Below are positions 9,972-45,975 of a stretch of DNA of 64,000 nucleotides, in pieces. A program made the translations under genes and the position numbers. The stretch covers positions 320,001-384,000 of the forward strand of contig OY969927.1 of the NCBI GenBank assembly GCA_963704655.1, in the 5' to 3' direction. How positions within the stretch are numbered: position 1 is the first letter of the stretch; each line of letters begins with the position of its first letter. The notes under the pieces are model-generated. The model had not been told where the DNA came from and made no database searches. It saw only the letters and a program-made list of their open reading frames with translations. The DNA is from an uncultured Candidatus Babeliaceae bacterium. GTDB lineage: Bacteria > Babelota > Babeliae > Babelales > Babelaceae.

Positions 9972-10030
9972 TAATTCATATTTTTATACAGTTGTTTTGA
10001 TTGCAATTTTTCAGCATAAAGCTAAGATAT

Positions 10031-10068
10031 CCCTACTTCGCACCTTGTGGGTGCTTCGAAGGGCAGGC
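10031..10068. repeat. REP-like hairpin ending GGGCAGGC
   Basis: CCCTACTTCGCACC-TTGTG-GGTGCTTCGAAGGGCAGGC; related to 34941-34973 and 55912-55970. Confidence 0.5.
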
Positions 10069-10094
10069 ATGTCAGGACATAGTGTCGGGAGATT

Positions 10095-11498
10095 ATGATG
10101 AAACATACGCAATCACTTTTTGCAAGTTACCTTTCTGGTATCAAAGATTCTGATAACGGTAATTCATATAGCACTATTTTGGCGCTCTTTTTCCCCGAGC
10201 TGATTACCGCCTTTGTTTTAATGATTAATATTGTTGATATGAAATTTGTTGCGCAGCTGAACTCAACCGGTTTATATAATGCCTTGGGTGTTACCTATAC
10301 GCTGCTGCATACTATCACCAAAATTGCAGAGGGCCTTTCTGTGGGCGCGGTGATTATGTGTGGCCATTATAATGGCGCTGACGATAAAAAAAATGTGGGT
10401 AACTCATTAAGTGCGGCTCTGTGGGTTTCACTGCTTGTAGGCGGCTTGATCGCATGGGCGCTTTTTGTGGGCGCGCATTCAATTTTTGTGTGGTACAACT
10501 TGCCTGAACGGTTAATAACTATTGGCGCTGCATATTTAAAAGTTCGTTGTCTCAGTATTTTTTGTATGTTTGTCAGTTACGGTATCGTAGGTTTTTTACG
10601 TGGTGTAAAAAATACACGGGTACCCATGAACCTTTTTCTTTTTGGCGCAGGGCTTTTTGTTGTTTTTGATTATCTTTTAATTTTTGGAAAATTTGGGTTT
10701 CCCCAGTTGGGTATTATGGGTTCTGCATGGGCCGCCGTGATCCAGTATGTGGTTATTAGTATTATTGGCCTGATTTATATATTTATGAGTAAGTACCATA
10801 AACTGTATGACGTTCAGATCTTTAACCTCCAGATTTTATGGCTCATGGGCAAGATCTTTATGGTCAGTTTGCCGGTTATGGTGGATAAGGCCACGCTCGC
10901 TATTGCAAAGATTTGGTTGTGTAGTTTGATTAACCCATTGGGTAAGGTTGCTATGGGTACATTTAATGTGATTAAAGATATGGAGCAGTTTGCCTTTGCC
11001 CCGGCAGTTGCCTTTGCACAAGTGATAACACTTTTGGTAAGTAATGATTACGGAAGTAAAAATTGGCAGGGGATTAAAAGCACGATTAAAAAAATTCTCT
11101 TTTTAAGTTCGCTCATGGTCTTTGTTATTTTAGTGGCCTTTTCTGTGATGCCGCACCTTGTTATTAGCCATTTTGATACTAAACAGGTATTTACCGATTT
11201 TGCAGCAACGGCATTTCCATTTATTAGTATTTTAGTGTTTTTTGATATTTTGCAGATTATTTTGGCTGCAGCGTTACGTGGTGCATCTAATGTGCGGGTG
11301 GTTATGATCGTGCGGTTGGTCTCACTATTATTTTTTTTCATGCCCGTTTCATACGCTTTTTCACTCTTGCCGCTTGAAAATACGCTCATTAAGTTTATCC
11401 TGATATACAGTACATTTTATATTGGCAACGGGCTTATGGGTATTATATATCTTATGCGGTTCCGTTCAGAAAGTTGGAAGAGCATATCATGGAGATAA
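10095..11498 (+). CDS. MATE family efflux transporter
   Basis: About 12 hydrophobic segments; LRGVKNTRVPM, LIFGKFGFPQLGIMGSAWA and ALRGASN motifs. Confidence 0.9.
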   Translation: MMKHTQSLFASYLSGIKDSDNGNSYSTILALFFPELITAFVLMINIVDMKFVAQLNSTGLYNALGVTYTLLHTITKIAEGLSVGAVIMCGHYNGADDKKNVGNSLSAALWVSLLVGGLIAWALFVGAHSIFVWYNLPERLITIGAAYLKVRCLSIFCMFVSYGIVGFLRGVKNTRVPMNLFLFGAGLFVVFDYLLIFGKFGFPQLGIMGSAWAAVIQYVVISIIGLIYIFMSKYHKLYDVQIFNLQILWLMGKIFMVSLPVMVDKATLAIAKIWLCSLINPLGKVAMGTFNVIKDMEQFAFAPAVAFAQVITLLVSNDYGSKNWQGIKSTIKKILFLSSLMVFVILVAFSVMPHLVISHFDTKQVFTDFAATAFPFISILVFFDILQIILAAALRGASNVRVVMIVRLVSLLFFFMPVSYAFSLLPLENTLIKFILIYSTFYIGNGLMGIIYLMRFRSESWKSISWR

Positions 11499-20670: not shown

Positions 20671-23400
20671 ATGAGTAATAGATTATTTATTTTTGCAGTA
20701 TTTTTGATCAGTTTATTTGTTCCGATATATGCGGAAATAACAAGTGTAGATGAAGCGCTTAAGGTTGTGGGTTTTCTTGATGCGCTTGAAGAAAATTATA
20801 AAGATGCATTTAAAGAAAAAAATATACGCTATGCATTGGAAGATTTATTAGCTTTTTATGAAAATTCAAATGAATTTACTCCAGAACAACGTGCAGGACT
20901 ATTTAATAAATTATATCGCTATTTCCAGCTGGTTGAAAAATTTGATGCTGAAAATGGCTCTGCAACAAAGTTTTTAAATTCAGATCAAAGTTTAGTAACC
21001 TACTGGACACAAATGGTAGCTGCTACTCATACTATACTTGATACGAATAATAGTTCTACGAGTAATGCATTAAATTTAATTGCGCCAATTTCTGGTGGAT
21101 TTAACTACACCTATACGTTGCAAATGCCGGTTAACCAGGGATCTTTTGGACAAGTTTTGTCAACTGATGGTAACAACCCTGCGCAACTTTCTTGGCTTAC
21201 TACTATAACTGCAGATGTAAGTCTTATTTACTCTGCAACAAGTTGTGATAATGTAAATACCATAGTATTACGTGATAATAATGGCAGTTTTGTAGCAACA
21301 AATATCGCGCTGATGGGCAATACAAATAACAGCTTAATAAATTATAGTACAACTTCATGTGGTCCGGGTACGTCGATGTTGAGTATTCCTGGAACACAAA
21401 ATATATTCTTAGGCACATCCGTTGGCAATTCAGCTGTATCGGGCCCAGGTAACGTAGCAGTTGGTAATACAACACTCAATGCTATAACTTCAGGCTCTGG
21501 TAACACTGCTATTGGTGTTAATGCATTAGCTGCAGTAGTGACAGGCTCTAATAATACTGCAGTTGGTTATGGCGCTAACGTAACTGGCGCAAATGCTCTG
21601 AATCAGACAGCAGTTGGTGCCGGCGCAGTTGCACCATTTAATAACAGCGTGGTATTAGGTAACGCTGCTGTAACCAATGTGGTCCCTATGGCAAGCGGTG
21701 TTACAAGTCTTGGTGGTGCAAGTAATATTTGGTCAACCCTCAATACCTATTCAACTAATTACTATGATAGATCAGGTGATGTAGTTACTATTGCAGCAAC
21801 GCCAGGTGGAACAGGAACTTATACAATGTATTGGCCAACTTCTGTAGGTCAAGCAGGGTATGTGCTTGAAGCAACCACCAGTAGTAGTCCGCAACAGCTT
21901 AATTGGATTCCTATTACCGCATTGCTGAGCGGTACCTATTGTGATTTCCCAAGCACCTACGTGCAGCGCGATCCAAATGGTAAATTTGCAGCAACAACGA
22001 TTACGTTAACGGGTGTATCGTTACTTAACTACAGCACTCTTGGTGGTTGTGACCTCGGTAACCCATTCTTGAGCGTTCCAGGAACAAACAACTTGTTCTT
22101 AGGCACTTCTGCTGGTAAACAAACAGTATCAGGCAGTGCCAACGTTGCTGTGGGTAACCAAGCATTAACAAGCATTAGTACTGGTACGTCTAATACTGCA
22201 ATTGGTTATAATGCTCTTGCTGCAGCAGCTGCCGGCTATAATAATGCTGCATTGGGTTATTATGCATTAGCTATTGCTACCGGAAATAATAACGTTGCAG
22301 TAGGTTATAATGCCGGTTCAGCAAGTACCGGATCTAATAATATCTATGTTGGTACAGGAGTAACCGGAAATTCTGGTGATGCCAGTGTTATCAGTATCGG
22401 TATTCAAAATGCTGGAACAAGTGGCACCTATATGGGTGGTATTTATAATACTACGCCTACAGGATTAAACTCTCTTGTAGGTATTACCAGCAGTGGTCAA
22501 CTTGGTGTTGCAACGTCAGCAACTATTACCACACTTACGGTATCAGGAAGTCTTACTGTTGATAATCTTAATGGTGCAGTTATTGCAACTAACGGGTTAT
22601 TAACAGCGACTATTGGTATTGACGGCACACGCCTTGCATCATTTATATTAACCGATACACCTGCAGTAAGCTTCTTCCAACCGGTTGAGCCATCACGTGA
22701 ATCATACTTCTTTGATGACTTTATGGCATTTAATTCTACTGCTGGCGACTTGTTCTATGGTGATACACAATGGGTAATTGGTAATAATACTGCCGGACGT
22801 GTTACGGCAATTGCACCGCTTGCATCTAATGGCGCAATTGGTGTGACTCGTTTAACATCTGGCGCTGCTGTAAATAACAGTAATTATATTACCAAACAGC
22901 TTACGGGCACAACGTCATTAAGCTTGTCGCTAGGATATGGCCCATGCTTGAATGAATGGCGTGTTTCTGTTCCAGCAACTTCAAGCGGAACAAATAGTTT
23001 CTATACTCGTGTTGGCTTTGGAGATAGTCCTGCTGCTACAGCAGTAAACCCAACAGGTGCGCCAAGTAATGGTATTTACTTCCAATGCCTTGATAGCATC
23101 AACAGTGGTTCATGGACGGTTAATACCGCAAGTAATGGAAGCAGAACATCGGCAAATACAGCAGTTGCTCCTACTCCAGGCGTATTCCAACGATTGAGTT
23201 TTCAAGTTAATGGAAATGCATCAAGTGTTACGTTCTACATAAATGATGTTTCGGTAGGAACTATTACGACAACGATACCAACAATAGCCAATGGTAACTA
23301 TTGTTCACCATATGCGTCTGTGGTGCGAAATGCTGGTACTGGAGGATCTCTTGATCTTGATTATTGGTATTTCCATTATACCTTTAATTCACGACGTTAA
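20671..23400 (+). CDS. Secreted tail-fibre/adhesin-like repeat protein (909 aa) with EPSRES domain
   Basis: Signal peptide; NTAxG repeats; ends LDYWYFHYTFNSRR. Confidence 0.8.
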   Translation: MSNRLFIFAVFLISLFVPIYAEITSVDEALKVVGFLDALEENYKDAFKEKNIRYALEDLLAFYENSNEFTPEQRAGLFNKLYRYFQLVEKFDAENGSATKFLNSDQSLVTYWTQMVAATHTILDTNNSSTSNALNLIAPISGGFNYTYTLQMPVNQGSFGQVLSTDGNNPAQLSWLTTITADVSLIYSATSCDNVNTIVLRDNNGSFVATNIALMGNTNNSLINYSTTSCGPGTSMLSIPGTQNIFLGTSVGNSAVSGPGNVAVGNTTLNAITSGSGNTAIGVNALAAVVTGSNNTAVGYGANVTGANALNQTAVGAGAVAPFNNSVVLGNAAVTNVVPMASGVTSLGGASNIWSTLNTYSTNYYDRSGDVVTIAATPGGTGTYTMYWPTSVGQAGYVLEATTSSSPQQLNWIPITALLSGTYCDFPSTYVQRDPNGKFAATTITLTGVSLLNYSTLGGCDLGNPFLSVPGTNNLFLGTSAGKQTVSGSANVAVGNQALTSISTGTSNTAIGYNALAAAAAGYNNAALGYYALAIATGNNNVAVGYNAGSASTGSNNIYVGTGVTGNSGDASVISIGIQNAGTSGTYMGGIYNTTPTGLNSLVGITSSGQLGVATSATITTLTVSGSLTVDNLNGAVIATNGLLTATIGIDGTRLASFILTDTPAVSFFQPVEPSRESYFFDDFMAFNSTAGDLFYGDTQWVIGNNTAGRVTAIAPLASNGAIGVTRLTSGAAVNNSNYITKQLTGTTSLSLSLGYGPCLNEWRVSVPATSSGTNSFYTRVGFGDSPAATAVNPTGAPSNGIYFQCLDSINSGSWTVNTASNGSRTSANTAVAPTPGVFQRLSFQVNGNASSVTFYINDVSVGTITTTIPTIANGNYCSPYASVVRNAGTGGSLDLDYWYFHYTFNSRR

Positions 23401-23427: not shown

Positions 23428-26400
23428 ATGAAAATAAACATACTAGTTTTCACATTAACGTTAGTAACATTTTTGCCATTTTATGCTGCCATAAACAGTT
23501 TAAAAGAAGCACGAATTGTTTCGCGGTATCTTGGTGTTATTAAACAACATGACACTATCCTTTTTTCAGACCCTTTGGTGATTCAGACGGTAAACGATCT
23601 TATTGATTTTTGTGAAAATAATAATCAATTAAGTGAACAAGAAAAATTGGAGTTTGTAACGAAATTAGAAGAGTTTATTTTGTTGGTCCCCGCTGATAGC
23701 AGTGGGGATCAACAGATCGGAGATCAATTGGTGGGGAAAGCAAACCCGCTGTCTGTTAATGGGCAGACATTGGTTGCTTATTGGAGTCAAATTTTTAGCT
23801 CGACAGAATTTTTATTTGATAGCACAGGGAACAACACCGTAGCATTATCTGCTCCATTGGTGTTAAATGATAGTTATACTTTACAATTTCCTGTATCAGA
23901 AGGTTCTGCTTATCAAGTGCTGGGAACATTGGGTGGCAATCCCGCACAACTTGCTTGGCTTACTACTGTTACTAATACGAGTCAATTAAATTTACTGAAT
24001 ACCGCAACAAATTGTGATGTTGCAAATACATTAGTATTGCGTGATACAACTGGCAGCTTTGCAGCAACAACAATCACGTTAACCGGCAATAGTTTAATTA
24101 ATTTCAGTACTGTTGGTGGCTGCGATATCGGACAAGGCTTTGTCTTTGCGCCAACACATCAAAATACCATTATCGGCCTAAATGCAGGAAATAATAACAC
24201 CCTTACCGGCACAAGTAATGTTGCATTAGGTTATAATGCGCTAGCAGCGAACATTATTGGACATGACAATATCGCATTAGGTACCAATGCGCTTGCAAAT
24301 AACACCACCAACCTATCTACTGCTGTAGGCTCAGGAACTTTACAAAGTAATGTTTCTGGTAGCCAAAATACTGCTGTTGGATATTATGCATTGAATAAAG
24401 TTGTTGCCAATGGTAACAATACCGCAGTTGGATATTACGCCCTTTTGAATAATACTAATAACCAGCTTACCGCTGTTGGTGCTGGTGCATTACAAACGAA
24501 TGTCAACGGCTCAGCAAATGTTGCAGTTGGCTATAACGCATTGAATCAAAATAACGGAGCAAACAATACGGGTCTTGGTTTTCAGGCAGCGCAGGGAACA
24601 ACTGCTGCAGGTAATATTGTTGCAGTAGGTGCAAATGCTTTTGCAGCAGGCGTTGCTACTGGTGCACAAACGGTTGCAGTTGGCTCAGCTGCGATGCAGA
24701 ATGCAAAACCAGCTTTGGGTGCAGATATTGCCATAGGTTATCAAGCATTGCAGAATGATAATCAAGGGCTCAATGTTGCAGTTGGTACATCGAGCATGAC
24801 CACTAATAATACCGGCGCTTATAACACTGCTGTTGGAATATCAACATTGCAAAACAATGGTAGTGGGATTCAAAATACTGCTATCGGATATTATGCACTT
24901 CAAGCAAATACAACGGGAACATCAAACATTGCATTAGGCTACCAAGCACTTGCAAATGCAAACACCATAAATAACTTTGATAATATTGCAATTGGAGCAT
25001 TTACGCTTACTGGAACTGCGGTATTGGGTGATAATATTGCGGTGGGGGTCAATGCGCTTTCTGCGCCTGGCTATAACCAAGGTCAGCAGATAGCAATTGG
25101 AACAAATGCATTACAACTTAATACAACTGGAACGGCAAATATTGCAATCGGTTACGAAGTGCTTGATGCAAACACGGCTGGTTCATCAAACGTTGGGCTT
25201 GGGTATCAAGCTTTAGGTACTAATGTTAGTGGTAATGATAATACAGCTGTTGGAACATTAGCTCTTTTCAATAACACAACAAATCAGATCACCGCGGTTG
25301 GTTCTGGTGCACTACAAAATAATACTACTGGTATTCAAAATACTGCAATTGGTTATAAAGCGCTTAATGCTAATACCACAGGGACATCAAATGTTGCTAT
25401 CGGATATAAAGCGTTACAGACAAATACTATTGGTGATGATAATATTGCTATAGGTTATAACGCATTAAACACCTTCAATTCTGCTATTGGAAAAAATATA
25501 GCTATTGGTTCGCTAGCATTGCAAAGTTTAAATACTACCAATGCGCAGAGTGTTGCCATTGGTTATCAGTCAGGGCTAATTTCTACAGGTGCTAGCAATA
25601 CTATTGTTGGTTCAAATGCGGCGACTGGTTTAACAACAGGCGGAAGTAGTGTTGTTATTGGTGCAACTGCCGGCGCAGGCACAACAGTAAGTAATAACGT
25701 TGTTGTTGGCGCAGGCGCAGGAAACCAGACATTAACGGGTGCAACTAACGTTGTTGTAGGGCAGGGTTCCGGAACTGGATTAACTTCTGGCGCAAGTAAT
25801 ACCATTTTAGGACAAGCTGCCGGAACCGGTTTAACGTCAGGTGGAAGCAGTGTTGTTATAGGCGCAACTGCAGGTGCAGGTACAACAGTAAGTAATAACG
25901 TTGTTGTTGGCGCAGGCGCAGGAAACCAGACATTAACGGGTGCAACTAACGTTGTTGTAGGGCAGGGTTCCGGAACTGGATTAACTTCTGGCGCAAGTAA
26001 TACCATTTTAGGACAAGCTGCCGGAACCGGTTTAACGTCAGGTGGAAGCAGTGTTGTTATAGGCGCAACTGCAGGTGCAGGTACAACAGTAAGTAATAAC
26101 GTGGTTGTTGGTGCTGGTGCGGGAAACCAGACATTAACCGGCGCTAGCAATGTTATTGTTGGTCAGGGAACAGCTACGGGATTAACTTCAGGTGGAAGCA
26201 ATATTATTATTGGTCAAGGAAACACGGGCGGTACATTAACTACAGGAGCTAATAATATTATTATTAGTACCGGCAATAATGCTACGTACCCAATCGCTAA
26301 TGGTTCGAATGGTATCATTATAGGCTTTGGAACAACTTCTACAACAGCCTGTTGGATCGATGGGATTCTGCCTTTTGCCGCTGGCGCAAATACTGTACGT

Positions 26401-29037
26401 ATAACTGCTGCTGGCAGATTGGGTACAGCTGCTTCGTCTGCACGTTATAAAACTAATATAAAACCGATGACAAGTGAGTCTTCAAATATATATCAGTTAA
26501 GTCCTGTTTCATTTACGTTTATTCCAAGTATTGATCCAACACAAACAACCTACTATGGTTTAATAGCCGAAAATACTGTTGGTCTTTACCCAAGTTTAGT
26601 TGTTACAGATACAGCAGGTCTTCCTTGGGCGATTAACTATGATTTATTGTCACCGATAGTTTTAAATGAAACACTTAAGCTTAACGCCTTTGTGCCGATA
26701 ACATTAAATTATACAAGTACGCAAAATACGGTTATTGGTAAAAATGCGTTGCAGGCAATTACTACTGGTTCGGGTAACACTGTTTTTGGTTATCAAGCGG
26801 GGAATTCGATCACAACAGGATACGGTAACACACTTCTTGGCATGGGTGCAGATGTAGCTTCTGGTAACCTGGTAAATGCGACAGCAATTGGTGCTGGTGC
26901 AAAGGCCACTAATAATAATACTATTGTCTTAGGAAATTCAAATGTTGTTGCTGTAGTACCCGGTTCAACTAATGCTACGCTTGGTGCGCCTGGGCAGATG
27001 TGGTCATCTATTATGACAACACAATTGACTTCTGCTGGCAGTTTAACATCGCCTACAATTACGTTAACAAGTAATCCATTAATGTATTATTATGATGGCA
27101 TAACCACGTGGACTATGTTGTCAGCGCCTGGAACACAAAATACTTTCTTAGGGCAAAGTGCGGGTAATTTATCGGTGACAGGAGCACGTAATGCTGCCTT
27201 TGGTTATCAGGCTGCAAAATCAAACATAACATCAAGTGATAATGTGGCTGTTGGGGTGAATGCATTGGCAACATATAATGGTGCAGGTGGTCAACATGTT
27301 GCAATAGGATCAGGTTCTATGCAAAATGCGACTCCTACCGGACAGTCTGATATTGCAATCGGATATAATACGTTGCAAAAAGATAATGGTCAAGGATCTA
27401 ATATTGCCATTGGTAACTCAGCAATGCAGAATGCTACGCCTATAAATGGTCAAGATATTGCAATTGGGTTACTTACATTACCAAGTGATACCATAGGATT
27501 TAATATCGCAATCGGTAACAGTAGTATGACTAATAATACAACTGGTGTTAATAACGTTGCTCTGGGAATTTCTTCATTACAAACTAATACTTCTGGATCG
27601 TATAACGTCGCTATCGGTAATAGCGCATTATTTGGAAACGCTGCCAATGCTGCAAAAAATGTAAGTAATAACGTTGCTGTTGGGTATCAAAGTTTGTATA
27701 ACAATCGCGCAAATAATTTAACGGCAATTGGTTATTATGCGCTTGGCTCAAATACAACCGGTATTCAAAATACGGCACTTGGTTATTACGCACTTGGCCT
27801 GAATACAACCGGCACATCAAATATCGCTATCGGTTATCAAGCTTTAGCAAATGCAAACACTATCAATAATTTTGATAATATCGCCATTGGTATAAATACG
27901 CTTTCTGGAGCAGGTGTCTTAGGTGATAATATCGCCATTGGTGCAAATGCGCTTTCTGCATCTGGGTATAGTCAAGGCCAGCAGATTGCTGTTGGCACAA
28001 ACGCATTGCAAGTTAATACAACAGGGACAGCAAATATAGCAATTGGTTATGGGGTGCTTGATGCAAACACGGTTGGGTCGTCGAACGTGGGGCTTGGGTA
28101 CCAAGCATTAACTACTAATGTTAGCGGTAATGACAATACTGCAGTTGGAACGAATGCTTTACAGTTTACGACAACATGGCGTTTAACTGCCGTTGGTTCT
28201 GGCGCATTACAATATAATACGACTGGTTTTCAAAATACCGCCGTTGGCTATCAGGCGCTTAATGCAAATACAACCGGCACATCGAATGTTGCTATTGGTT
28301 ACCAAGCTCTTTTAACAAATACAGGAAGCAGTAGCAATATCGCCATTGGTGCCAATACATTAACAAGATTTAGCAGTGCTTCTAATTTTGGTGGCAATAA
28401 TACAGCAGTGGGTATCAATGCGTTAGTTTCACTCATTACGGGAACTGGCAATACAGTTTTGGGCTACAACGCTGGATCAAACTTAACAACTGGTAGTGGA
28501 AATATTTATGTCGGTGCATTTGTTGCCGCAGCAACAACTAACGAGAGCAACACAATACGTATTGGAAGTGTTGGCGGTGCAGGAACAGCAGCTTGCTATA
28601 TTCAAGGAATTAATGGTAAAACAGTTCTTCCTGTAGCTGGTGCGGGCACTGTTAGTGTAAGTACGACTGGACAGCTTGGTACTACCGTTTCATCACGACG
28701 TTTTAAGAAAAATATTCAAGATATGGGTCTAATCACTGAAGATTTGTATAAATTACGTCCTGTAACATTTAATTATAAAGTTGATGAGGCTGAAGAGCAT
28801 TTAGAATATGGTCTAATCGCTGAGGAAGTTGATGAGGTTTATCCAGGGATTATTATTAGGGATGATTATGGAGCGCCATTTTCGGTTCAATACCAATTTC
28901 TTCCTATGATGATGCTTAATGAATTGCAAAAAGATCGTGCACGTATTGTGGTATTAGAAGATAAAATTGTAAGATTGGAACAACAGATTAGCAAGCTTTT
29001 GAATAATAGTGAACGACTTTCAGTAAAGGATGTGTGA
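23428..29037 (+). CDS. Tail-fibre-like repeat protein (1,869 aa) with internal and C-terminal peptidase S74 (intramolecular chaperone)-like domains
   Basis: Dozens of NTAVGYxAL repeats; SSARYK...YGLIAE internally; SSRRFK...YGLIAEEV plus coiled coil at the C-terminus. Confidence 0.85.
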   Translation: MKINILVFTLTLVTFLPFYAAINSLKEARIVSRYLGVIKQHDTILFSDPLVIQTVNDLIDFCENNNQLSEQEKLEFVTKLEEFILLVPADSSGDQQIGDQLVGKANPLSVNGQTLVAYWSQIFSSTEFLFDSTGNNTVALSAPLVLNDSYTLQFPVSEGSAYQVLGTLGGNPAQLAWLTTVTNTSQLNLLNTATNCDVANTLVLRDTTGSFAATTITLTGNSLINFSTVGGCDIGQGFVFAPTHQNTIIGLNAGNNNTLTGTSNVALGYNALAANIIGHDNIALGTNALANNTTNLSTAVGSGTLQSNVSGSQNTAVGYYALNKVVANGNNTAVGYYALLNNTNNQLTAVGAGALQTNVNGSANVAVGYNALNQNNGANNTGLGFQAAQGTTAAGNIVAVGANAFAAGVATGAQTVAVGSAAMQNAKPALGADIAIGYQALQNDNQGLNVAVGTSSMTTNNTGAYNTAVGISTLQNNGSGIQNTAIGYYALQANTTGTSNIALGYQALANANTINNFDNIAIGAFTLTGTAVLGDNIAVGVNALSAPGYNQGQQIAIGTNALQLNTTGTANIAIGYEVLDANTAGSSNVGLGYQALGTNVSGNDNTAVGTLALFNNTTNQITAVGSGALQNNTTGIQNTAIGYKALNANTTGTSNVAIGYKALQTNTIGDDNIAIGYNALNTFNSAIGKNIAIGSLALQSLNTTNAQSVAIGYQSGLISTGASNTIVGSNAATGLTTGGSSVVIGATAGAGTTVSNNVVVGAGAGNQTLTGATNVVVGQGSGTGLTSGASNTILGQAAGTGLTSGGSSVVIGATAGAGTTVSNNVVVGAGAGNQTLTGATNVVVGQGSGTGLTSGASNTILGQAAGTGLTSGGSSVVIGATAGAGTTVSNNVVVGAGAGNQTLTGASNVIVGQGTATGLTSGGSNIIIGQGNTGGTLTTGANNIIISTGNNATYPIANGSNGIIIGFGTTSTTACWIDGILPFAAGANTVRITAAGRLGTAASSARYKTNIKPMTSESSNIYQLSPVSFTFIPSIDPTQTTYYGLIAENTVGLYPSLVVTDTAGLPWAINYDLLSPIVLNETLKLNAFVPITLNYTSTQNTVIGKNALQAITTGSGNTVFGYQAGNSITTGYGNTLLGMGADVASGNLVNATAIGAGAKATNNNTIVLGNSNVVAVVPGSTNATLGAPGQMWSSIMTTQLTSAGSLTSPTITLTSNPLMYYYDGITTWTMLSAPGTQNTFLGQSAGNLSVTGARNAAFGYQAAKSNITSSDNVAVGVNALATYNGAGGQHVAIGSGSMQNATPTGQSDIAIGYNTLQKDNGQGSNIAIGNSAMQNATPINGQDIAIGLLTLPSDTIGFNIAIGNSSMTNNTTGVNNVALGISSLQTNTSGSYNVAIGNSALFGNAANAAKNVSNNVAVGYQSLYNNRANNLTAIGYYALGSNTTGIQNTALGYYALGLNTTGTSNIAIGYQALANANTINNFDNIAIGINTLSGAGVLGDNIAIGANALSASGYSQGQQIAVGTNALQVNTTGTANIAIGYGVLDANTVGSSNVGLGYQALTTNVSGNDNTAVGTNALQFTTTWRLTAVGSGALQYNTTGFQNTAVGYQALNANTTGTSNVAIGYQALLTNTGSSSNIAIGANTLTRFSSASNFGGNNTAVGINALVSLITGTGNTVLGYNAGSNLTTGSGNIYVGAFVAAATTNESNTIRIGSVGGAGTAACYIQGINGKTVLPVAGAGTVSVSTTGQLGTTVSSRRFKKNIQDMGLITEDLYKLRPVTFNYKVDEAEEHLEYGLIAEEVDEVYPGIIIRDDYGAPFSVQYQFLPMMMLNELQKDRARIVVLEDKIVRLEQQISKLLNNSERLSVKDV
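25624..26200. repeat. About three 201-bp (67-aa) tandem repeats
   Basis: ACAACAGTAAGTAATAAC at 25681, 25882 and 26083. Confidence 0.9.
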
Positions 29038-32000
29038 TGAAAAGAAAGATGTTATTTTTTTATACTATATTTTTGACGTTAAGTGCCTTAACAACGCTTA
29101 ACGCAGTTCAAGATAAAGTTGTTTTGGTTGATAACAATACATTATCTCAGCTAGATATGCATAGATGGTATAATGAAAATATACATCAGCTAGAATCTGT
29201 TCCTGCACAAGCGTATGTTCATCATAAGATTTTTAAACTGACACATGATAAAGATTCTGAATACATTTTTATATACGGAAATAAAAAATTCGTGTCACGA
29301 CAAGAAGCACAATTAGATGCGGGTGATTGTTGTTTAGGGCAACTGCCTGGCGCAACGCTGATCGCAGATTTTCTTGTGCATAATCAAGATCTTTTTGTCC
29401 GTAATGCGCAAAAAGTTTCACACCGTGCCGGTCAATTTATTTGGGATCGACTTACTCCTGGATTACCTTTATTGTTAGATTCAAATTTAGATGTTGTTAC
29501 ACAAAACGTTGATATAGCAAGTCAAACAAGCGGTGCTGTGGCAATAGCATTAGGTGGCACCAATTCAACTTCGCCATTACAGAACAATTGTCTTATGGAA
29601 TCAGTTGGTGGACAAATAGTTGAAGCTCCGGCGTTACAAAATGGACAGATTTTTATTGGTGCAACAGGCATGTCGCCAAGTCCTGCAACTATTTCTGGAA
29701 CAGCTTCTCAAATTAATATAACAAATGGCCCTGGATCTATAACACTTTCAACACCACAAAATATCGATTTACTGTCAACGCCGACATTTGTGGGTATTCA
29801 GTTTCAACCTAGTGGTTCATCTAATTATGTTACTCTTCAGGCACCTGCAACAGTAAGTTCAACGTATTCAGTAAGCCTACCAGGCTCTGCGCCAACTGCA
29901 GGTCAAGTATTACAGGCAACATCTACATCAACAACTCAGTGGGGGAATGTGAGTGACGCGCTTACTTTATATGTTGCTGTCAATGGAAATGATAGCACGG
30001 GAAATGGCTCATTAACAGCACCTTTTGCAAGCTTAAAGCGGGCACTAGCCGTCGCTAATGCTATTGCATCAGAATATACACCAGTTAAAATCTCAGTGGG
30101 GCCTGGTATATTTGTGGAAGACACTTCTTCTGGCCCATTAATAATTAATCCTGTAAGTGGTAGTGGTTATATCAACATTGTGGGAACATCAAGTCAAACA
30201 ACTCTCTTTACTTCTTATACCCCAACACAAACGTTTATCTATATGCCAGCAAATGGCCGGCTTTCTGATTTGGCAATTTTTGGTATATATGAAGCGCCCG
30301 CAGTGTGCGCAGATGGCACTGGTAATAATTCTGCCTTTATTAACGCTGTTGCAGTTGGTTGCCAGCAGGGTTTTCTTTTTCAAGGTGGTATAACAACTAA
30401 CTACTATTTACAAGGAGTTGCTACCGAAAGTTGCGGTGTTGGTGTGCTAGTTGATGATGCTCGCGTGTTGATGTATAACTCAAGTTTTGATGGGGCACTT
30501 GAAACAACAATTATTCCTGCAAATACGGGGGTTATTGTAACAGGTCCGGCAGGGCGTATGGTTGCAGAGTCATGCGCATTTTTATATTGCGGCCTTTGTG
30601 GATTGGTAGAAAATCAAGGGAACGCTACATTTATAGGCGGCTCGTTTATTAGTTCAACAAGTGGTGTTCAGGCAGCAAGTCAGTCAACGTGTATTGTTAA
30701 TGGTTCAACATTTTATAGTAATACCGCAACGAATATGATCGCTCGAGATTTGGGGACAACTTTGCAGTCAACTGCATGTAATGTTGATGGTAATAGTTTA
30801 AATAATCTTCCGCAAGGAACGGGTCTTTTGGTTACCACCAGTGCTCAGGCTAATATTGCAGTTGCGTCGTTAACTAATTTAATAAATGGTATTATCATTG
30901 GTCAAGATGGTGATGATAGCACAACGCAGGTTCTTTCAGTTGGAGTAACTATCGATAATTGTGCAGGATCACAAATTATTCAAAATGGGCTTGCGCAATT
31001 AACGTATGTTGATGGTGCTCTTAATAGGAACTTTATAACTATTTCAAATCCTACAAATGTTACCTTTAATACCACGGATGCTTCAAGCGGGCAGGCAACG
31101 ATTATTGGTCAGCATAGTGATGTTGATCAAGATTTGATTCTTGTTGATACTGGGGTTGCGCAGATGCCAGGGTTAGTTTATCAATCAAATTATATGGATT
31201 GTAAGGGTATAATTTATCAAAATACTAATCCTGCTTTTTCAACCATGCTTGGGGTGCAGGGACAAAACTCTGGCGCAACACTTTCTGCAGTTACTGCTTC
31301 AAATGCACAACCTGCAAAAGTCATGTTATTTTCAAACTCCGGTGCTTTTGGCGGAATGAGTAATATGCGCGGTTGGTTGTTGAATAAAAACGCAACAAAC
31401 GCTCAATTGGCAGGTGAATTTTATAATAATGATCTTGATGGTAAACCTGCTATAGATCAATATACAAGTTTTCAATTTGACGGTTTTAATAATATTTTGC
31501 AATTCCCGGCAGTAACCACAACAAATTTACCAACCAATACCGTGGCACAATTACAATGGGCGGGAGATACGAATCTTTACCGTGCACAAGCAGGTGTGTT
31601 ACAGACAGATAATAACTTTGCCATTCAAGGTCTTGCCACCGCAAATAGTGCATTATATGTAGATGGTAATAAGCAGGTTGCTGCAAGTGTTACCTCTTCA
31701 AGTGATTTAGCACAACTTGCAGGAATAACCGGTGGTCCTATTCAGCCGCAACTTAATAATAAAGTTTCAAAGGCTGGCGATGTTATGACCGGCGTGTTAA
31801 CTATTCCAGATGGCACCGTTGCAAGACCGGCACTTAGTTTTAATGGTTTTCCTAATACTGGATTAGCGATTATAGGTAACGTTTTTACCTTAATGACTTC
31901 AGGCAGTTCACGCTTAACAGTAGATGCTAACGGTGTTGTGGGTATTAATAGCTCGAATGTTTCAACGGTGTTGAACGTAGGCGGTGATGTATCTGTAGTG

Positions 32001-34502
32001 GGTGATCTTACGGTGACTAACACCTTAACTACCAATTGGTTAACTATTCAAAATAGTCCAGTTTTCTCAACAGATGGCGCCAATAAAGCTTATGTCGATG
32101 GGGTTGCTCAGGGATTACATGTTGCAGCGCCATGCACTGCACTTGGAGATTCAAATATCAGTTTGCTCTCTGGCGCCATAACTATTGACGGTGTATCACT
32201 TGTTGTTGGCAATCGTGTATTGCTTATTGGGCAAACAAGCTCAGTTGAAAATGGTATTTGGGTTGTACAATCTGGTTCATGGACACGACCAGTAGATTTT
32301 GCAACTGGAAATAGTGCGCAAGCAATTTATGCATTTATACAATCTGGGTCAACATATGGTGACACCGCATATTTTTGTACTACATTAGACCCGAATGCGG
32401 TAATTGATACTGACGCACTTACCTTTGTGCAGTTCGGTAATGTTCAGGATGTTACAGGTCAAAACTTAGGAAGTGGAGCGTCAGTATTTGCTCAAAAATA
32501 TGGACAAACGTTACAATTTAAATCACTTGATGCAGGGCAAAATATCTTTATATCTTCTTCTGATACCGATATTACGATAGATCTTCCATCTGCATTAAAT
32601 ATCTCTGGTAAAATAACTGCCGGCACTGATATTAAGGGCGCAAGTATTAGTGATGGTATTGCGCTATTAACCAGTGGTAATTTGAATCTAAATAATCTTA
32701 TTTCAACGGCTACGGTTACAAGTTCTGATGGATCGGCTGCGTATCCAAGTTTTAATTTTGCATCATCGCCACAGACAGGAATTTCTGCACAGACGCCTGA
32801 CACATTAGTATTATCAACAGCGGGAGTTAACAACTTGCAAATTAATTCTTCAGGAATTATTCAAATTCCCGCGTTTACATCACCAGGAATTGTGCATAAC
32901 GATGCTTCAGGAAATCTTTCTTCGTCATTAATAACCAGTGCCGATATATCAGCAACTGCCGGTATAGCAGATACGCAACTTGGTATTATTCATACTGCGG
33001 GTAAAGTTGCTAATAGCGCTACAACAGCAACAAATAATAATAATCAAAATACTATTGTCATGCGCGACATGAATGGTAACTTTTCTGCAGGCGCGGTGAG
33101 CGCCTCTTTGCAAGCACCGAGTGGTTCAGTAACTTCGCCATCGGTGGCTTTTGCAAATTCACTTAATGCAGGCTTATCATCGCCCGTTGCAGGCCAGCTG
33201 AGCATAAGTGCAGGTGGTGCAGAATTATTACAATTGCAAGCGGGTGGAAATATCTATGTTCCTGGTTTTGTTTCAAATAATGGGGTGGTAAAATCAACAT
33301 CGGGTATATTAAGCTCCGCGCCGTTATATGATGCGGATATCGCAGTTGGCGCTTCTATACAAGATACAAAATTAGCAACCATACAAAGTGCTAATAAAGT
33401 TGCAAATAGCGCAACTTCTGCAACATCGGCTAATAGTGCTAATACTATTGTCGCACGTGATGGATCTGGTAACTTTGTTGCAAATACAGCAACATTTGTT
33501 GCAACAAATAATCATCTTGTATTGGGCAGTGGTAATACGGTTACCATTAATGCTGCCACTCCTGCAGTTTCACGTACGTATACAGTTCCAGACACCGGTA
33601 CATCAACTTCTACGTTTATGATGGTTGATGGCGCACAAACTATGAATGGTCCACTTACCTGTAATCAACTTTCTGTGACGCCGGGTAGCTTTACGGTGGG
33701 TTCACAAACCGGGGTTGTTACGGCAAATAGCGGTCTTTATGGTGCATCGGTTGGAAATGCTGGTCAACGTCTTGCAACATTTGGCAGCACACCAACTGTT
33801 GGGTGGTACAAGTCAATTGAGCCATCACGCGAGTCATTATTCTTTGATGATTTTACTGGCCCGCTGTTTGATACGCAGTGGTATGCTGGCGGATCGATTG
33901 GTAGTGTAACAGCACCAAGTGCTTCTGCAACGGGCATGGAGATTGGCGTTATTCAACTTGGCACGGCTGGCGCACCAGATGGTTCTACGGTAATTAATAA
34001 ACAACTTAATGGCACTGTGCTTGGCAATGGAACATGTTATGTTGAATGGCGCGTTGCAGTGCCAACATTATCAACAAGTAATCAGCAGTTTACCTTCAGA
34101 TGTGGTCTTGGTGATAGCAGTGTTGGCAACGGTGTTCCGCAGGCAAATCCAACAACGGGTATTTGGTTTGAACATAGCGGTACTAATATTTCACCTACAT
34201 GGATCATTAATTGTGCATCTGCAGGAAACACTACTTCCATTCCTACTACGCAGGTTATTGCTCAGGGTGTCTATTATCGATTAGGACTTTTAGTAGATGC
34301 TGCTGCTGATTCGGTATCATACTATATTAATGACGTGCTTGTTGGGGTTAGTTCTGGAACGAATCCAATTACTACAAATATTCCGACTACGGTACAACCT
34401 GTTGGTTTATTTGCGCATCTTATTAAATCATCAGGAACAACGGCGCGTACGGCAAACTTGGATTATGCAATGTACCAGTATGTTTATACGAGCCAACGAT
34501 AG
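29034..34502 (+). CDS. Mosaic tail-fibre-like protein (1,822 aa): beta-helix region, phage fibre motifs, EPSRES domain
   Basis: LYVAVNGNDSTGNGS...PFASL; KVSKAGDVMTG; ANKAYVD...IDGV...RVLL..Q...ENGIW; C-terminal EPSRESLFFDDF. Confidence 0.8.
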   Translation: MMKRKMLFFYTIFLTLSALTTLNAVQDKVVLVDNNTLSQLDMHRWYNENIHQLESVPAQAYVHHKIFKLTHDKDSEYIFIYGNKKFVSRQEAQLDAGDCCLGQLPGATLIADFLVHNQDLFVRNAQKVSHRAGQFIWDRLTPGLPLLLDSNLDVVTQNVDIASQTSGAVAIALGGTNSTSPLQNNCLMESVGGQIVEAPALQNGQIFIGATGMSPSPATISGTASQINITNGPGSITLSTPQNIDLLSTPTFVGIQFQPSGSSNYVTLQAPATVSSTYSVSLPGSAPTAGQVLQATSTSTTQWGNVSDALTLYVAVNGNDSTGNGSLTAPFASLKRALAVANAIASEYTPVKISVGPGIFVEDTSSGPLIINPVSGSGYINIVGTSSQTTLFTSYTPTQTFIYMPANGRLSDLAIFGIYEAPAVCADGTGNNSAFINAVAVGCQQGFLFQGGITTNYYLQGVATESCGVGVLVDDARVLMYNSSFDGALETTIIPANTGVIVTGPAGRMVAESCAFLYCGLCGLVENQGNATFIGGSFISSTSGVQAASQSTCIVNGSTFYSNTATNMIARDLGTTLQSTACNVDGNSLNNLPQGTGLLVTTSAQANIAVASLTNLINGIIIGQDGDDSTTQVLSVGVTIDNCAGSQIIQNGLAQLTYVDGALNRNFITISNPTNVTFNTTDASSGQATIIGQHSDVDQDLILVDTGVAQMPGLVYQSNYMDCKGIIYQNTNPAFSTMLGVQGQNSGATLSAVTASNAQPAKVMLFSNSGAFGGMSNMRGWLLNKNATNAQLAGEFYNNDLDGKPAIDQYTSFQFDGFNNILQFPAVTTTNLPTNTVAQLQWAGDTNLYRAQAGVLQTDNNFAIQGLATANSALYVDGNKQVAASVTSSSDLAQLAGITGGPIQPQLNNKVSKAGDVMTGVLTIPDGTVARPALSFNGFPNTGLAIIGNVFTLMTSGSSRLTVDANGVVGINSSNVSTVLNVGGDVSVVGDLTVTNTLTTNWLTIQNSPVFSTDGANKAYVDGVAQGLHVAAPCTALGDSNISLLSGAITIDGVSLVVGNRVLLIGQTSSVENGIWVVQSGSWTRPVDFATGNSAQAIYAFIQSGSTYGDTAYFCTTLDPNAVIDTDALTFVQFGNVQDVTGQNLGSGASVFAQKYGQTLQFKSLDAGQNIFISSSDTDITIDLPSALNISGKITAGTDIKGASISDGIALLTSGNLNLNNLISTATVTSSDGSAAYPSFNFASSPQTGISAQTPDTLVLSTAGVNNLQINSSGIIQIPAFTSPGIVHNDASGNLSSSLITSADISATAGIADTQLGIIHTAGKVANSATTATNNNNQNTIVMRDMNGNFSAGAVSASLQAPSGSVTSPSVAFANSLNAGLSSPVAGQLSISAGGAELLQLQAGGNIYVPGFVSNNGVVKSTSGILSSAPLYDADIAVGASIQDTKLATIQSANKVANSATSATSANSANTIVARDGSGNFVANTATFVATNNHLVLGSGNTVTINAATPAVSRTYTVPDTGTSTSTFMMVDGAQTMNGPLTCNQLSVTPGSFTVGSQTGVVTANSGLYGASVGNAGQRLATFGSTPTVGWYKSIEPSRESLFFDDFTGPLFDTQWYAGGSIGSVTAPSASATGMEIGVIQLGTAGAPDGSTVINKQLNGTVLGNGTCYVEWRVAVPTLSTSNQQFTFRCGLGDSSVGNGVPQANPTTGIWFEHSGTNISPTWIINCASAGNTTSIPTTQVIAQGVYYRLGLLVDAAADSVSYYINDVLVGVSSGTNPITTNIPTTVQPVGLFAHLIKSSGTTARTANLDYAMYQYVYTSQR

Positions 34503-39842: not shown

Positions 39843-40685
39843 ATGAAGTATACATATAGATCTGTTTATATCGTTATAGCTATGACGGTTGCATCAGCTC
39901 AGGCAGAAAATGAGTCTAAAAGTCTTGGTAGTTTTGTTGCAAAAAATGCCTTATTAGGGGCTATTGCCGGTGGTTTAGAGGTAACGGTTAACCAGCCTTT
40001 AGTAACTATCAAAAATAGTTTGCAGCAGCGGCTGCCGATAGCTTTTGACCGCACTTTGTATAAAGGGTATATGGTTAATGCTGGTAGCATGGGGCCGATT
40101 ACAGCGGCTCAGGTAACGGTATATGCGTTGATAAAAAAACAATTCGAGTCGCACGGTAGAGCTCTTTCTGATGCGCAGAATTTGGGGGCTGGTTTTGCAG
40201 CAGGTGCTGTCTCTGGTCTGGTAAGTGGTCCGGCTGAGCTTATTATGTTAAAACAGAAAAATAGTGGTAAAACATTGCAACAGGCTTTTACTGATGTTAT
40301 GAGACAAAAGGGTGTTGCTGGGTTATGGCGCGGCTTTGTGCCAGCGGCAATGCGTGACGGTGGTTTTACTATGGGGTATCTTGCTTTAGGCGATGTCTTT
40401 AAGAACCCTATCAAAAAGATAGTTCATGATGAGCGTCTTGCTTCATTGACGGCCGGCATTTGTGCAGGTTTAGTAGTTGCTCCTCCAACGCACCCTTTTG
40501 ATACAATAAAGACTATTATGCAGGCAGAAGATATAACGCTTAAGCAGGCTATGTATAAAAAATACCGGTCACATGGTGTTCAGGGTTTTTTTGACGGGTT
40601 GTCACCACGTGCGTTCAGGATTCTCTTGGCAATACCTTTAATGAGTATGGTTAAGTATGAACTTTCGCTGCACTTGGATCTTTAG
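39843..40685 (+). CDS. Mitochondrial carrier (SLC25)-family protein
   Basis: Three repeats with Px[DE]xx[KR]-like motifs (QPLVTIK, GPAELIM, HPFDTIKTIMQ) and LYKG / GLWRG / GFFDG motifs. Confidence 0.85.
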   Translation: MKYTYRSVYIVIAMTVASAQAENESKSLGSFVAKNALLGAIAGGLEVTVNQPLVTIKNSLQQRLPIAFDRTLYKGYMVNAGSMGPITAAQVTVYALIKKQFESHGRALSDAQNLGAGFAAGAVSGLVSGPAELIMLKQKNSGKTLQQAFTDVMRQKGVAGLWRGFVPAAMRDGGFTMGYLALGDVFKNPIKKIVHDERLASLTAGICAGLVVAPPTHPFDTIKTIMQAEDITLKQAMYKKYRSHGVQGFFDGLSPRAFRILLAIPLMSMVKYELSLHLDL

Positions 40686-43635: not shown

Positions 43636-45975
43636 ATGAATGATCCTCTACAAGCAATTGAAAAATATGTTCGAGCGGTTAATTACTTATCAGTTAGCCA
43701 AATTTTTCTTCAATCAAATGTGTTGCTTAATCGACCATTAACTTTTGAAGATATCAAGCCGCGTCTTTTAGGGCACTGGGGAACGTGTCCAGGTATTAAT
43801 TTTATGTACGCTCATCTCAATTATCTTATTAAAAAGCATCATCAATCAACGATTTTTGTTTTAGGCCCTGGCCATGGATTTCCTGCATTGCAAGCTAACT
43901 TATTTATGGAGGGAGTTTTACAGAAGTGTTACCAAGAAGCTACCCAAGATGAATCTGGGATCACGTATTTATGCAAAAAATTTAGTTGGCCTTATGGATT
44001 TGCTAGCCACGCAAACCCAGGAACACCGGGTACCATTTTAGAAGGTGGCGAGCTTGGTTATGCATTGTCTACGGCATATGGCGCAGCACTTGATAATCCA
44101 GATCTTTTAGTTGCCTGTGTTATTGGTGATGGCGAAGCAGAAACGGGCGCAACAGCAACTTCTTGGCATATAAATAAATTTCTTGACCCGGTAACCTGTG
44201 GCGCTGTTTTACCTATTTTACACCTAAACGGGTATAAAATTTCAGGACCAACTATTTTTGGGCGCATGACCAACAAGGAATTAAAGTCACTTTTTTATGG
44301 TTATGGGTATGAGCCAATTATTATTGAGGGCAGGGATCTTTACAAAAAAATGGCACAGGGGCTAGAAACAGCATTTCAGCTTATTAAAGATATTCAAAAA
44401 AGTCATAGAGCAGGAACAAGCTCAGGATTTGCCCGTTTTCCTATGATCATTTTAAAAACAAAAAAGGGCTGGACCGGCCCTAAGTATATACACGGCAAAA
44501 AGATTGAAGGGAATAATCTTGCGCATCAAGTAATACTCAAGCAGGCAAAGACTGATAAAAAAGAGTTAGCCATTCTTGAAAAATGGTTGGCATCATACAA
44601 ATTTGCAGAACTTTTTAATCTGGAACATGGATTTGATAAAGATATTACCGCTTTAATACCGCCAGCACCATTATCCATGGGCAATAACGATCATGCTTAT
44701 AGTGGCCGCATATATAAAGATCTTATATTGCCAGACCCCCAAATGTTTGCAGAAGATGCAACCGTTCCAGGAACTATTGGATCAAGCAGTATGCGTAGGG
44801 CTGGTTTATATCTACAGGCACTATGCGAACTTAATAAAAATACAAAAAATTTTAGATTGTTTTCACCAGATGAAATTTATTCAAATAAATTAGATGCGAT
44901 ACTCAGTTGTACATCGCGTGCTTTTGAGTTGCCTATCAAAAAGTGGGACCGCGATTTAATGCCAGATGGTCAGGTTATAGAGATGTTAAGTGAGCATGTA
45001 CTTCAGGGGCTTGCTCAAGGATACACCTTAACGGGTCGACATGCCTTGTTTGCTTCATATGAAGCCTTTATTGACATTGTAAGTAGTATGGCCGCGCAAT
45101 ATGCAAAATTTTTAAAAGCCGCACATGAATTTTCTTGGCGGGGGGATTGCGCGTCATTTAATTACATTCTTACGTCGTCTGGTTGGCGCCAAGAACATAA
45201 CGGATTTTCTCATCAAAATCCTGGATTTATCGGGAACATGCTCAAAAAATATTGTGGATTTATTAAAGCTTATTTTCCTCCAGACGGTAACAGTACGCTT
45301 GCCGTGCTTAAACATTGTTTTGCATCAAAGAATGGTATTAATATTATTGTTGCTGGCAAAACGCTAGAGCCGCGGTGGTTAACACTCCAAGCAGCAGAAA
45401 AAGAATTGAAAAATGGGCTCATGATATGGGATTTTGCAAGCGATGCTGATCCTGATATCGTGTTTGCAGCAATAGGTGATTATCTTACTAAAGAATCATT
45501 AGCAGCAATTGATATTTTAAAAACATGCATTTCAACAATTAAAGTTCGTTTTGTTAATATTATGGTCCTTTCATGCGGTGGTACTTTTGGTAATACGTGG
45601 TTGTCGACACAAGATTTCAATGCTTATTTTACCGCGGATAAACCAGTCATATTCAATTATCATGGCTATCCAGAAACGGTTAAATCGATTCTTTTTGAAC
45701 AACAAAATACGAGCAGGTTTTTTGTGCACGGATATATTGAAAGTGGTTCAACAACAACACCTTTTGACATGCAGGTACGTAATAAAACAAGTCGATATCA
45801 TCTGGTAATCGAAGCGCTTGAATTGTTGGCAAGCACTAATGTTATTGATCGAAAAATTGCTGAAAAGTTTAGTGCAATGTACCGAAATAAATTAGAGGAA
45901 CATGCAGTTTATATCAAAAAATATGGTGTTGATCCAAAAGAAATTGAAGAGTGGCAATGGAAAAGAACTACTTAG
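43636..45975 (+). CDS. xfp: Xylulose-5-phosphate/fructose-6-phosphate phosphoketolase
   Basis: GHWGTCPG, EGGELGY, GDGEAETG, SYEAF and HNGFSHQ motifs. Confidence 0.95.
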   Translation: MNDPLQAIEKYVRAVNYLSVSQIFLQSNVLLNRPLTFEDIKPRLLGHWGTCPGINFMYAHLNYLIKKHHQSTIFVLGPGHGFPALQANLFMEGVLQKCYQEATQDESGITYLCKKFSWPYGFASHANPGTPGTILEGGELGYALSTAYGAALDNPDLLVACVIGDGEAETGATATSWHINKFLDPVTCGAVLPILHLNGYKISGPTIFGRMTNKELKSLFYGYGYEPIIIEGRDLYKKMAQGLETAFQLIKDIQKSHRAGTSSGFARFPMIILKTKKGWTGPKYIHGKKIEGNNLAHQVILKQAKTDKKELAILEKWLASYKFAELFNLEHGFDKDITALIPPAPLSMGNNDHAYSGRIYKDLILPDPQMFAEDATVPGTIGSSSMRRAGLYLQALCELNKNTKNFRLFSPDEIYSNKLDAILSCTSRAFELPIKKWDRDLMPDGQVIEMLSEHVLQGLAQGYTLTGRHALFASYEAFIDIVSSMAAQYAKFLKAAHEFSWRGDCASFNYILTSSGWRQEHNGFSHQNPGFIGNMLKKYCGFIKAYFPPDGNSTLAVLKHCFASKNGINIIVAGKTLEPRWLTLQAAEKELKNGLMIWDFASDADPDIVFAAIGDYLTKESLAAIDILKTCISTIKVRFVNIMVLSCGGTFGNTWLSTQDFNAYFTADKPVIFNYHGYPETVKSILFEQQNTSRFFVHGYIESGSTTTPFDMQVRNKTSRYHLVIEALELLASTNVIDRKIAEKFSAMYRNKLEEHAVYIKKYGVDPKEIEEWQWKRTT

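Follow-up and report, generated by a model that had tools for sequence, protein, structure and literature searches.

Two S74 chaperone domains in one chromosomal fibre protein of a Babeliaceae bacterium: a putative self-processing fibre polyprotein

The DNA analysed here is a 64,000-nucleotide (nt) stretch from an uncultured Candidatus Babeliaceae bacterium (contig OY969927.1, positions 320,001 to 384,000), referred to below as the window. Our subject is the gene P0001, which encodes a fibre protein of 1869 amino acids (aa) containing two domains of the S74 intramolecular chaperone family. One domain, S74a, lies inside the chain and is followed by a second fibre; the other, S74b, ends the protein. 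The parts of the gene, in window coordinates, are as follows.

23428..29037, + strand: gene P0001, double-S74 fibre protein, 1869 aa; a single uninterrupted open reading frame (ORF), stop codon included
23428..23490, + strand: putative signal-peptide-like N terminus, about aa 1-21; Lys2, then a hydrophobic run, as read from the translation
23491..24117, + strand: family-specific N-terminal domain, about aa 22-230, presumed to be the cell-proximal end; common to P0003 and Babeliaceae paralogues
24118..26433, + strand: fibre 1, aa 231-1002, Gly/Asn/Thr-rich repeats, identified by PHROG matches and by self-similarity to fibre 2
25583..26218, + strand: three tandem repeats of 201 nt (67 aa) within fibre 1 (repeat family D1)
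26434..26712, + strand: S74a, internal S74 domain, aa 1003 to about 1095; PF13884, 34.5 bits as a separate piece
26434..26436 and 26449..26451, + strand: codons of Ser1003 and Lys1008 of S74a; predicted cut before nt 26434
26713..28689, + strand: fibre 2, about aa 1096-1754, in frame downstream of S74a, identified by self-similarity to fibre 1; its start is kept in protein P0237
28690..29034, + strand: S74b, C-terminal S74 domain with coiled-coil tail, aa 1755-1869; PF13884, 48.1 bits as a separate piece
28690..28692 and 28705..28707, + strand: codons of Ser1755 and Lys1760 of S74b

A preliminary description of this locus had proposed two S74 domains in one polypeptide and suggested a scan with the Peptidase_S74 hidden Markov model (HMM) of Pfam (PF13884; curated cut-off, 22 bits). 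That scan gave two matching stretches on the whole protein (E 3.2e-20, 72.6 bits), and when the two regions were scanned as separate pieces each of them exceeded the cut-off: S74a (aa 1003-1058) with E 2.4e-8, covering profile positions 1-57 of 58, and S74b (aa 1755-1806) with E 1.4e-12. S74b also matched phrog_33119, the long tail fibre distal subunit, at 1.6e-9. The motif reads SSARYK from aa 1003 (nt 26434) in the internal copy and SSRRFK from aa 1755 (nt 28690) in the terminal one, which are exactly the positions named at the outset, and the proposed spacing of Ser and Lys, five residues apart, is present in both (S1003/K1008 and S1755/K1760). The equivalent pairs are given as S911/K916 in endoNF and S587/K592 in MyRF in the relevant part of PMC8326128. 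An alignment of seven sequences (A2), consisting of both P0001 copies and five S74 domains of other genomes, has nine invariant columns, two of which are this Ser and this Lys; S74a keeps all nine. Identity to S74a within A2 is 19-22% for the other-genome rows and 35-36% for S74b and L001, and the two P0001 copies are 34% identical to each other. Against solved structures, the A2 profile matched 6F45 (phage S16 gp37) at 1.4e-9, 8HQZ (a T5-type L-shaped fibre) and 8JOV, and further MYRF (7DC3) at 3.1e-5 and phi29 gp12 (3GUD) at 0.011. A phmmer search of PDB gave nothing significant for the S74a and S74b pieces (E 0.39-0.97) and no matches for the whole of P0001. By their sequence and catalytic residues, both domains belong to the S74 family.

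The two copies differ in position, with 37 aa following the HMM match of S74b and 788 aa following that of S74a; the C-terminal location typical of phage S74 proteins is thus that of S74b but not of S74a. The preliminary statement that S74 domains are normally C-terminal stands for S74b, but it needs qualification as a rule, since an internal S74 domain was already known from MYRF and, to judge from the account in PMC3742443, a C-terminal position does not define the family.

A neck of the form G-x-L-G-T precedes S74a and S74b alike. The second fibre, about 650 aa long, is in the same frame as the internal S74 domain, as had been claimed at the outset; over aa 1203-1754 it shares 44-49% identity with aa 207-795 of the first fibre. 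P0001 matches tail-spike and virion-structural families of PHROG with E values of 1e-107 to 6e-121. The D1 repeat copies in fibre 1 measure 234 nt at 201-nt spacing, with identities of 89% and 76% to the reference; their number could vary among strains or be assembly-sensitive. The N-terminal domain is 37% identical to that of the upstream neighbour P0003 over 237-259 aa and is common to the Babeliaceae paralogues P0225, P0226, and P0230; P0229 was also found through it. These paralogues start likewise with Lys/hydrophobic, signal-peptide-like N termini, as judged by inspection of the translations. The domain has no match in Pfam and none in PDB by phmmer, all its look-alikes in an Atlas search were below threshold (maximum, 0.86), and the fibre genes P0001, P0002, and P0003 all lack an NCBIfam family.

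A chain of this kind might arise by artefact, through an assembly chimera or a sequencing error that fused two genes at about nt 26700. Genes rich in repeats are easily misassembled, the tandem 201-nt repeats lie just upstream (25583-26218), and P0001 is missing from the protein collections searched. The junction itself, however, recurs in an independent protein, P0237 (605 aa), whose internal S74 domain is 63% identical to S74a and runs into the next fibre through the same motif, FVPITLNYT. In a tree of 28 S74 domains, S74a and the internal domain of P0237 formed a clade with 100/100 support, and S74b grouped with the terminal domain of the paralogue P0226 (support, 99/95). It follows that the layout with two S74 domains is older than the split between these proteins. 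Within P0001, the two halves resemble each other at the DNA level over at most 300 nt, at 77%, the two S74 copies share the 34% identity given above, GC content at third codon positions (GC3) is flat at 0.23-0.30 throughout, and fibre 2 has neither its own start region nor its own signal peptide. A layout of this kind is seen in thirteen further proteins. These sequence comparisons make an assembly chimera at the junction very unlikely, and we regard an artefact of either kind as scarcely credible.

A profile built from both P0001 copies was searched against 1.84 billion representative proteins, giving 41,432 matches at E≤0.001. Counts of multi-S74 layouts were taken from the best 150 of these 41,432; since summed scores set the ranking, the top of the list is enriched in multi-domain proteins. 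At least two S74 stretches were found in 15 of the 150 by the search's own stretch count and in 13 of the 150 by our own S74 HMM. Pfam confirmed at least two stretches in 11 of 13 proteins, a set made up of 12 found by our HMM together with P0058; P0235, at 7103 aa, was excluded by its length. P0058 was left uncounted for the second S74 domain seen by our HMM, as no stretch passed Pfam alone, and P0244, double by our HMM, has one stretch by Pfam. P0246 and P0338 showed two stretches by the search count and one by our HMM. The multi-S74 proteins carry two or three S74 domains at regular spacings, from 320 to 2358 aa, as in the following four.

P0236: 1014 aa, S74 spacing 320-322 aa
P0234: 1818 aa, S74 spacing 551-558 aa
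P0241: 1720 aa, S74 spacing 728 aa
P0235: 7103 aa, three S74 domains, spacing 2355-2358 aa

Modules within one such protein are only 34-62% identical (59-60% in P0235), and they are therefore old duplications rather than collapsed repeats. The S74 copies of P0235, P0239, P0240, P0241, and P0243, and those of P0236 together with P0238, cluster within their own proteins in the tree; from this clustering in six proteins it follows that the multi-S74 layout arose several times. Some of the multi-S74 proteins come from organisms whose amino acid composition is very different, and P0235 carries the N-terminal adaptor domain of the Babeliaceae fibre family. Like P0001, the proteins P0234, P0235, P0236, P0237, P0241, and others consist of tandem modules of fibre plus S74 with the Ser-Lys pair kept; all are unnamed and unannotated in public sets. 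P0237 shares with P0001 the internal S74 subtype and the junction. In most multi-S74 proteins the internal and terminal copies are most closely related to one another, whereas the internal copy of P0001 and P0237 represents a separate, older lineage.

Ten relatives were found through the N-terminal domain; by our HMM, five of them have one terminal S74 domain and none has two. Two of these five lie on the same 1.3-Mb contig. For P0227, the precomputed Pfam annotation lists PF13884, and our HMM finds no S74 domain. An earlier, length-restricted search gave 100 matches, half of which (50) had an S74 domain; in 10 of these 50, more than 100 aa followed it. An internal S74 domain is thus uncommon but not rare, and a double or triple S74 is rare; because two- and three-S74 proteins recur in public data, the architecture of P0001 is rare and not unique. 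A scan of genome contigs gave six distant loci at 33-45% identity. At locus L005 (Winogradskyella sp., NZ_CP138990.1), two adjacent short genes (7368-8477 and 8499-10208) each end in an S74 domain, and together they resemble a two-module protein in unfused form. Locus L004, in a Candidatus Nomurabacteria metagenome-assembled genome (MFTO01000008.1, 7458-11555), encodes a fibre protein of this candidate-phyla-radiation bacterium with 190 aa after its S74 domain, a further case of an internal S74 domain in a cellular genome. A literature search on multiple or internal S74/ICA domains or fibre polyproteins found no relevant paper; the single paper found to mention both Dependentiae and tail fibres is a study of an aquifer virome. 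What is new in P0001 is the presence of tandem, putatively self-cleaving chaperones in one chain, a layout kept in at least one relative and recurring in unrelated lineages.

Our reading, which we consider rather probable, is that P0001 is a secreted trimeric surface fibre made of two modules, each a repeat fibre plus an S74 domain, which folds from the C terminus toward the N terminus and in which both S74 domains cleave. The domains, the catalytic residues, the chromosomal location, the conserved junction, and the recurring layout are shown by the sequence data; secretion, folding order, cleavage, and what becomes of the distal piece are inferred. S74b would trimerise through its coiled coil and nucleate the folding of fibre 2 from its C to its N terminus. 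Folded fibre 2 would then bring the three copies of S74a into register, compensating for the short helix of that domain, and S74a in turn would nucleate fibre 1. Each S74 domain would cut just before its own Ser (S1003 and S1755) by means of its Ser-Lys pair. Three products would be expected: fibre 1 (aa ~22-1002, 96.4 kDa per chain), S74a joined to fibre 2 (aa 1003-1754, 75.5 kDa per chain), and S74b (aa 1755-1869, 13.6 kDa per chain). With a cut before each Ser, a single gene would yield two distinct trimeric fibres in 1:1 proportion, and P0001 probably does give two fibres. The piece consisting of S74a and fibre 2 would either leave or stay on fibre 1 as a joint. A precedent is found in MYRF, where, in the account of PMC3742443, a cut before the Ser of the internal S74 domain splits the protein into two trimers, and the domain stays with the C-terminal one.

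Whether S74a acts in this way was weighed on several lines of evidence. A structure model of three copies of aa 960-1115 gave an ipSAE of 0.83, against 0.00 for the best control, with pLDDT of at least 76 and contact agreement of at least 86%; of the cases used for calibration, 20 of 30 solved one-chain pairs attained the ipSAE mark, as did 1 of 23 single chains. The predicted trimer contacts are extensive and reach aa ~1092 (chain residue 133). Foldseek ranked the MYRF ICA domain first for the S74a monomer (7DC3 at the top), with the phi29 and endoNF chaperones also leading, all weaker than 1e-3. Over the 13 multi-S74 proteins, P0001 included, 15 of 17 internal copies and all 13 terminal copies have the Ser-x4-Lys pair; a pattern script gave 14 internal and 12 terminal pairs, and two P0239 copies were added by reading the strings. 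We know of nothing other than catalysis for which both the Ser and the Lys are needed. In every S74 protein studied in the three sources at hand, as far as they describe it, the wild-type domain cleaves (PMC10769870, PMC3742443, PMC8326128).

Several points weigh against this reading. Cleavage of P0001 is predicted from its sequence, and for the putative signal peptide and surface location our evidence is inspection of the translation. P0001 was missing from the matches of three large protein searches, though the isoleucyl-tRNA synthetase of the window (IleRS, P0104) was found; perhaps the public record carries no protein annotation for P0001. The success of the trimer model may reflect memory of solved S74 trimers. 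The AF2 monomer of S74a is poor (pLDDT, 49.1), and with it Foldseek gave 0 of 173 matches at E≤1e-3 (best, 7.7e-3, TM 0.35). About 17-20 helix-prone residues stand between S74a and the fibre repeats, compared with about 36 in S74b; prolines occur at 1074 and 1090 after the S74a core, the helix that the AF2 monomer draws over aa 1071-1114 is not reliable (pLDDT, 56-73), and the S74b tail has a weak zipper match (0.0017). In MYRF, trimerisation is described as driven mainly by the C-terminal coiled coil, and zipper mutants as unprocessed (PMC3742443, PMC8326128). S74a is also the most divergent S74 domain in the tree; its branch is long, at 1.05 changes per column, which could mean altered or relaxed function. 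Finally, the pair has been lost in two internal copies elsewhere (P0239 at aa 345 and P0329 at aa 463), and internal S74 copies can therefore decay.

These points bear on two alternatives. The main rival to the two-fibre reading holds that S74a is a trimerisation node or knee, which either does not cleave or cleaves and does not release, so that the product is one long or jointed fibre. The truncated coiled coil after S74a would fit such a role, given what the MYRF sources report of the zipper, as would the long branch of the internal clade and the predicted trimer contacts as far as aa ~1092; the two decayed copies indicate that the fold can persist without the pair. A node would nevertheless leave unexplained the retention of the pair in 15 of 17 internal copies, among them both members of the divergent internal clade, and it would depart from the cleavage reported for every wild-type S74 protein in the sources cited above. 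We consider this alternative unlikely, if the most serious one. In the other, S74a is a functionless, decaying relic of a fusion between neighbouring S74-ended fibre genes. Unfused tandem genes of that kind do exist, as at the Winogradskyella locus, and no S74 domain in the tree is more divergent than S74a. A decaying domain is hard to reconcile, on the other hand, with the conservation between P0001 and P0237, which is 63% in S74a compared with ~40% over a wider alignment that includes fibre (P0001 728-1122), with a score of 34.5 bits over 57 of 58 PF13884 positions, or with the nine invariant A2 columns, all of which S74a keeps; multi-S74 layouts, moreover, arose several times independently. 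A relic thus appears very doubtful.

P0001 lies between two further fibre genes on the same strand.

20671..23400, + strand: P0003, upstream paralogous fibre gene, 909 aa, with an alternative tip domain; without S74 by Pfam and by a local HMM
29037..34502, + strand: P0002, downstream fibre gene, ~1821 aa from the ATG at 29037; without S74, with a tip domain of the P0003 type

P0001 starts 27 nt beyond the end of P0003, and its TGA overlaps the ATG of P0002 (TGATG, 29035-29039), which suggests coupled translation of P0001 and P0002; in the ORF list, P0002 has a GTG start one codon earlier, at 29034. Because promoters and terminators in the window were predicted at chance frequency (53 found and 54.4 expected; 11 and 13.6), operon structure is argued only from the 27-nt gap and the TGATG. 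The C-terminal tip domain of P0003 and P0002 comprises ~230-270 aa, is 44% identical between the two, and begins with EPSRES. It has no match in Pfam, NCBIfam, or PDB and an AF2 pLDDT of 28; its look-alikes in Atlas are hypothetical proteins of viruses (Uroviricota), at 0.98, and it is probably a phage-type receptor-binding tip. P0231 has the same ending. The sole family match of P0002 (as the 1822-aa protein from 29034) is phrog_17264, of unknown function, at aa 1040-1158 (E 3.9e-16).

The resemblance to phage proteins raises the possibility that P0001 is a prophage or phage tail fibre gene: its PHROG matches to tail-spike and virion-structural families are strong, its database relatives are named "tail fiber domain-containing protein," and the tip domain of its neighbours has the viral look-alikes just described. 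The surroundings point elsewhere. Twenty of the 30 flanking ORFs scanned have Pfam matches, all to housekeeping or cell-envelope families, including GidB, MatE, a GatA-like amidase, MreC, RecJ, IleRS, phosphoketolase, acetate kinase, L9, DnaB, and RuvC, and none of the 30 matched a family for phage structure, packaging, or integration. The window contains no tRNA, and its composition is even. The IleRS shares 86% identity with its counterpart in a Candidatus Babeliaceae bacterium and 56-62% with those of other Dependentiae/Babeliales entries. Together with the signal-peptide-like N termini and the paralogues elsewhere on the 1.3-Mb contig, this makes a phage origin highly improbable. P0001 is a chromosomal gene of Dependentiae (Babeliaceae), not a phage gene, and the phage-type wording of the preliminary description does not apply to it.

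Three further features of the window were recorded. At 39843-40685, a bacterial gene encodes two mitochondrial-carrier repeats (Mito_carr, E 4.7e-32), a eukaryote-type transporter, which is consistent with intracellular life in protists. A phosphoketolase gene followed by an overlapping acetate kinase gene (43636-47078) is notable for a small (~1.3 Mb), host-dependent genome. A giant ORF of more than 3081 aa leaves the window on the minus strand (2-9244); the 1666 aa of it that were checked had no Pfam and no NCBIfam match.

The closest likeness in design is to the mosaic adhesive trimer (MAT) fibres of Bdellovibrio bacteriovorus. As set out in PMC10769870, 13 of 21 MAT fibres have one terminal S74 domain and 8 of 21 none, a conserved β-rich domain of ~130 aa stands directly after the signal peptide, and in Bd3182, of the S74 class, the substitution S782A blocks cleavage. 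On that description, MAT fibres and P0001 share a chromosomal gene, a signal peptide (putative in P0001, by inspection), a conserved N-terminal domain, a trimeric fibre of at least ~1000 aa, and a terminal S74 domain with Ser and Lys; both families also include S74-ended and other-tipped members, the latter represented here by P0003 and P0002, which flank P0001. Unlike the MAT fibres described, P0001 has a second, internal S74 domain and then another fibre, and it comes from a different phylum and lifestyle. By analogy, P0001 may work like a MAT fibre. Because its N-terminal domain matches nothing in Pfam, PDB, or Atlas, only a likeness of design is claimed, and not membership.

With MYRF, P0001 shares the internal position of an S74 domain. 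MYRF has one ICA domain, with a DNA-binding domain before it and, after it, a full leucine zipper, then a membrane helix and a lumenal domain, none of which Pfam finds in P0001; in P0001, fibre repeats and a second S74 domain follow the internal one instead. A membrane-bound transcription factor of the MYRF type was accordingly rejected, as such Pfam domains are absent and the sequence after S74a is fibre repeat. The phage chaperones of K1F endosialidase (3GW6), phi29 gp12 (3GUD), T5 pb1 (4UW8, 8HQZ), and S16 gp37 (6F45) belong to the same Pfam family as the P0001 domains and share with them the Ser-x4-Lys pair and the position right after a trimeric stalk; in S74b the pattern is complete, down to the coiled coil. 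Each of the phage proteins is a virion component with one such domain, at its end, whereas P0001, a cellular gene, encodes two per chain. A trimeric autotransporter adhesin was also considered and rejected, Pfam finding no YadA-type anchor; a YadA_head repeat in P0001 is below threshold (E 0.017, 15.9 bits, cut-off 25).

Dependentiae (Babeliaceae) are intracellular associates of protists. We tentatively propose that proteins built of tandem modules of fibre plus S74 form an undescribed class of self-processing fibre polyproteins, which would fold module by module, C-terminal module first, to give two or three trimeric fibres in equal numbers or a jointed fibre with a retained cap; the class would have arisen repeatedly in unrelated bacteria and, in Dependentiae, might serve attachment to the protist host.

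To our knowledge, the S74 chaperone is regarded as a terminal folding cap that acts once, MYRF being the only internal case. If the reading given here is true, two or three S74 domains per chain would mean that the domain can also be used as a built-in processing site, and bacteria could make several fibres from one gene or fold fibres of several thousand residues in stages. For the engineering of receptor-binding proteins, a natural way of chaining trimeric modules would be suggested. Phage-like self-cleaving surface fibres have, as far as we know, been characterised so far only in Bdellovibrio; P0001 would extend them to Dependentiae, a phylum whose host-attachment machinery is essentially unknown.

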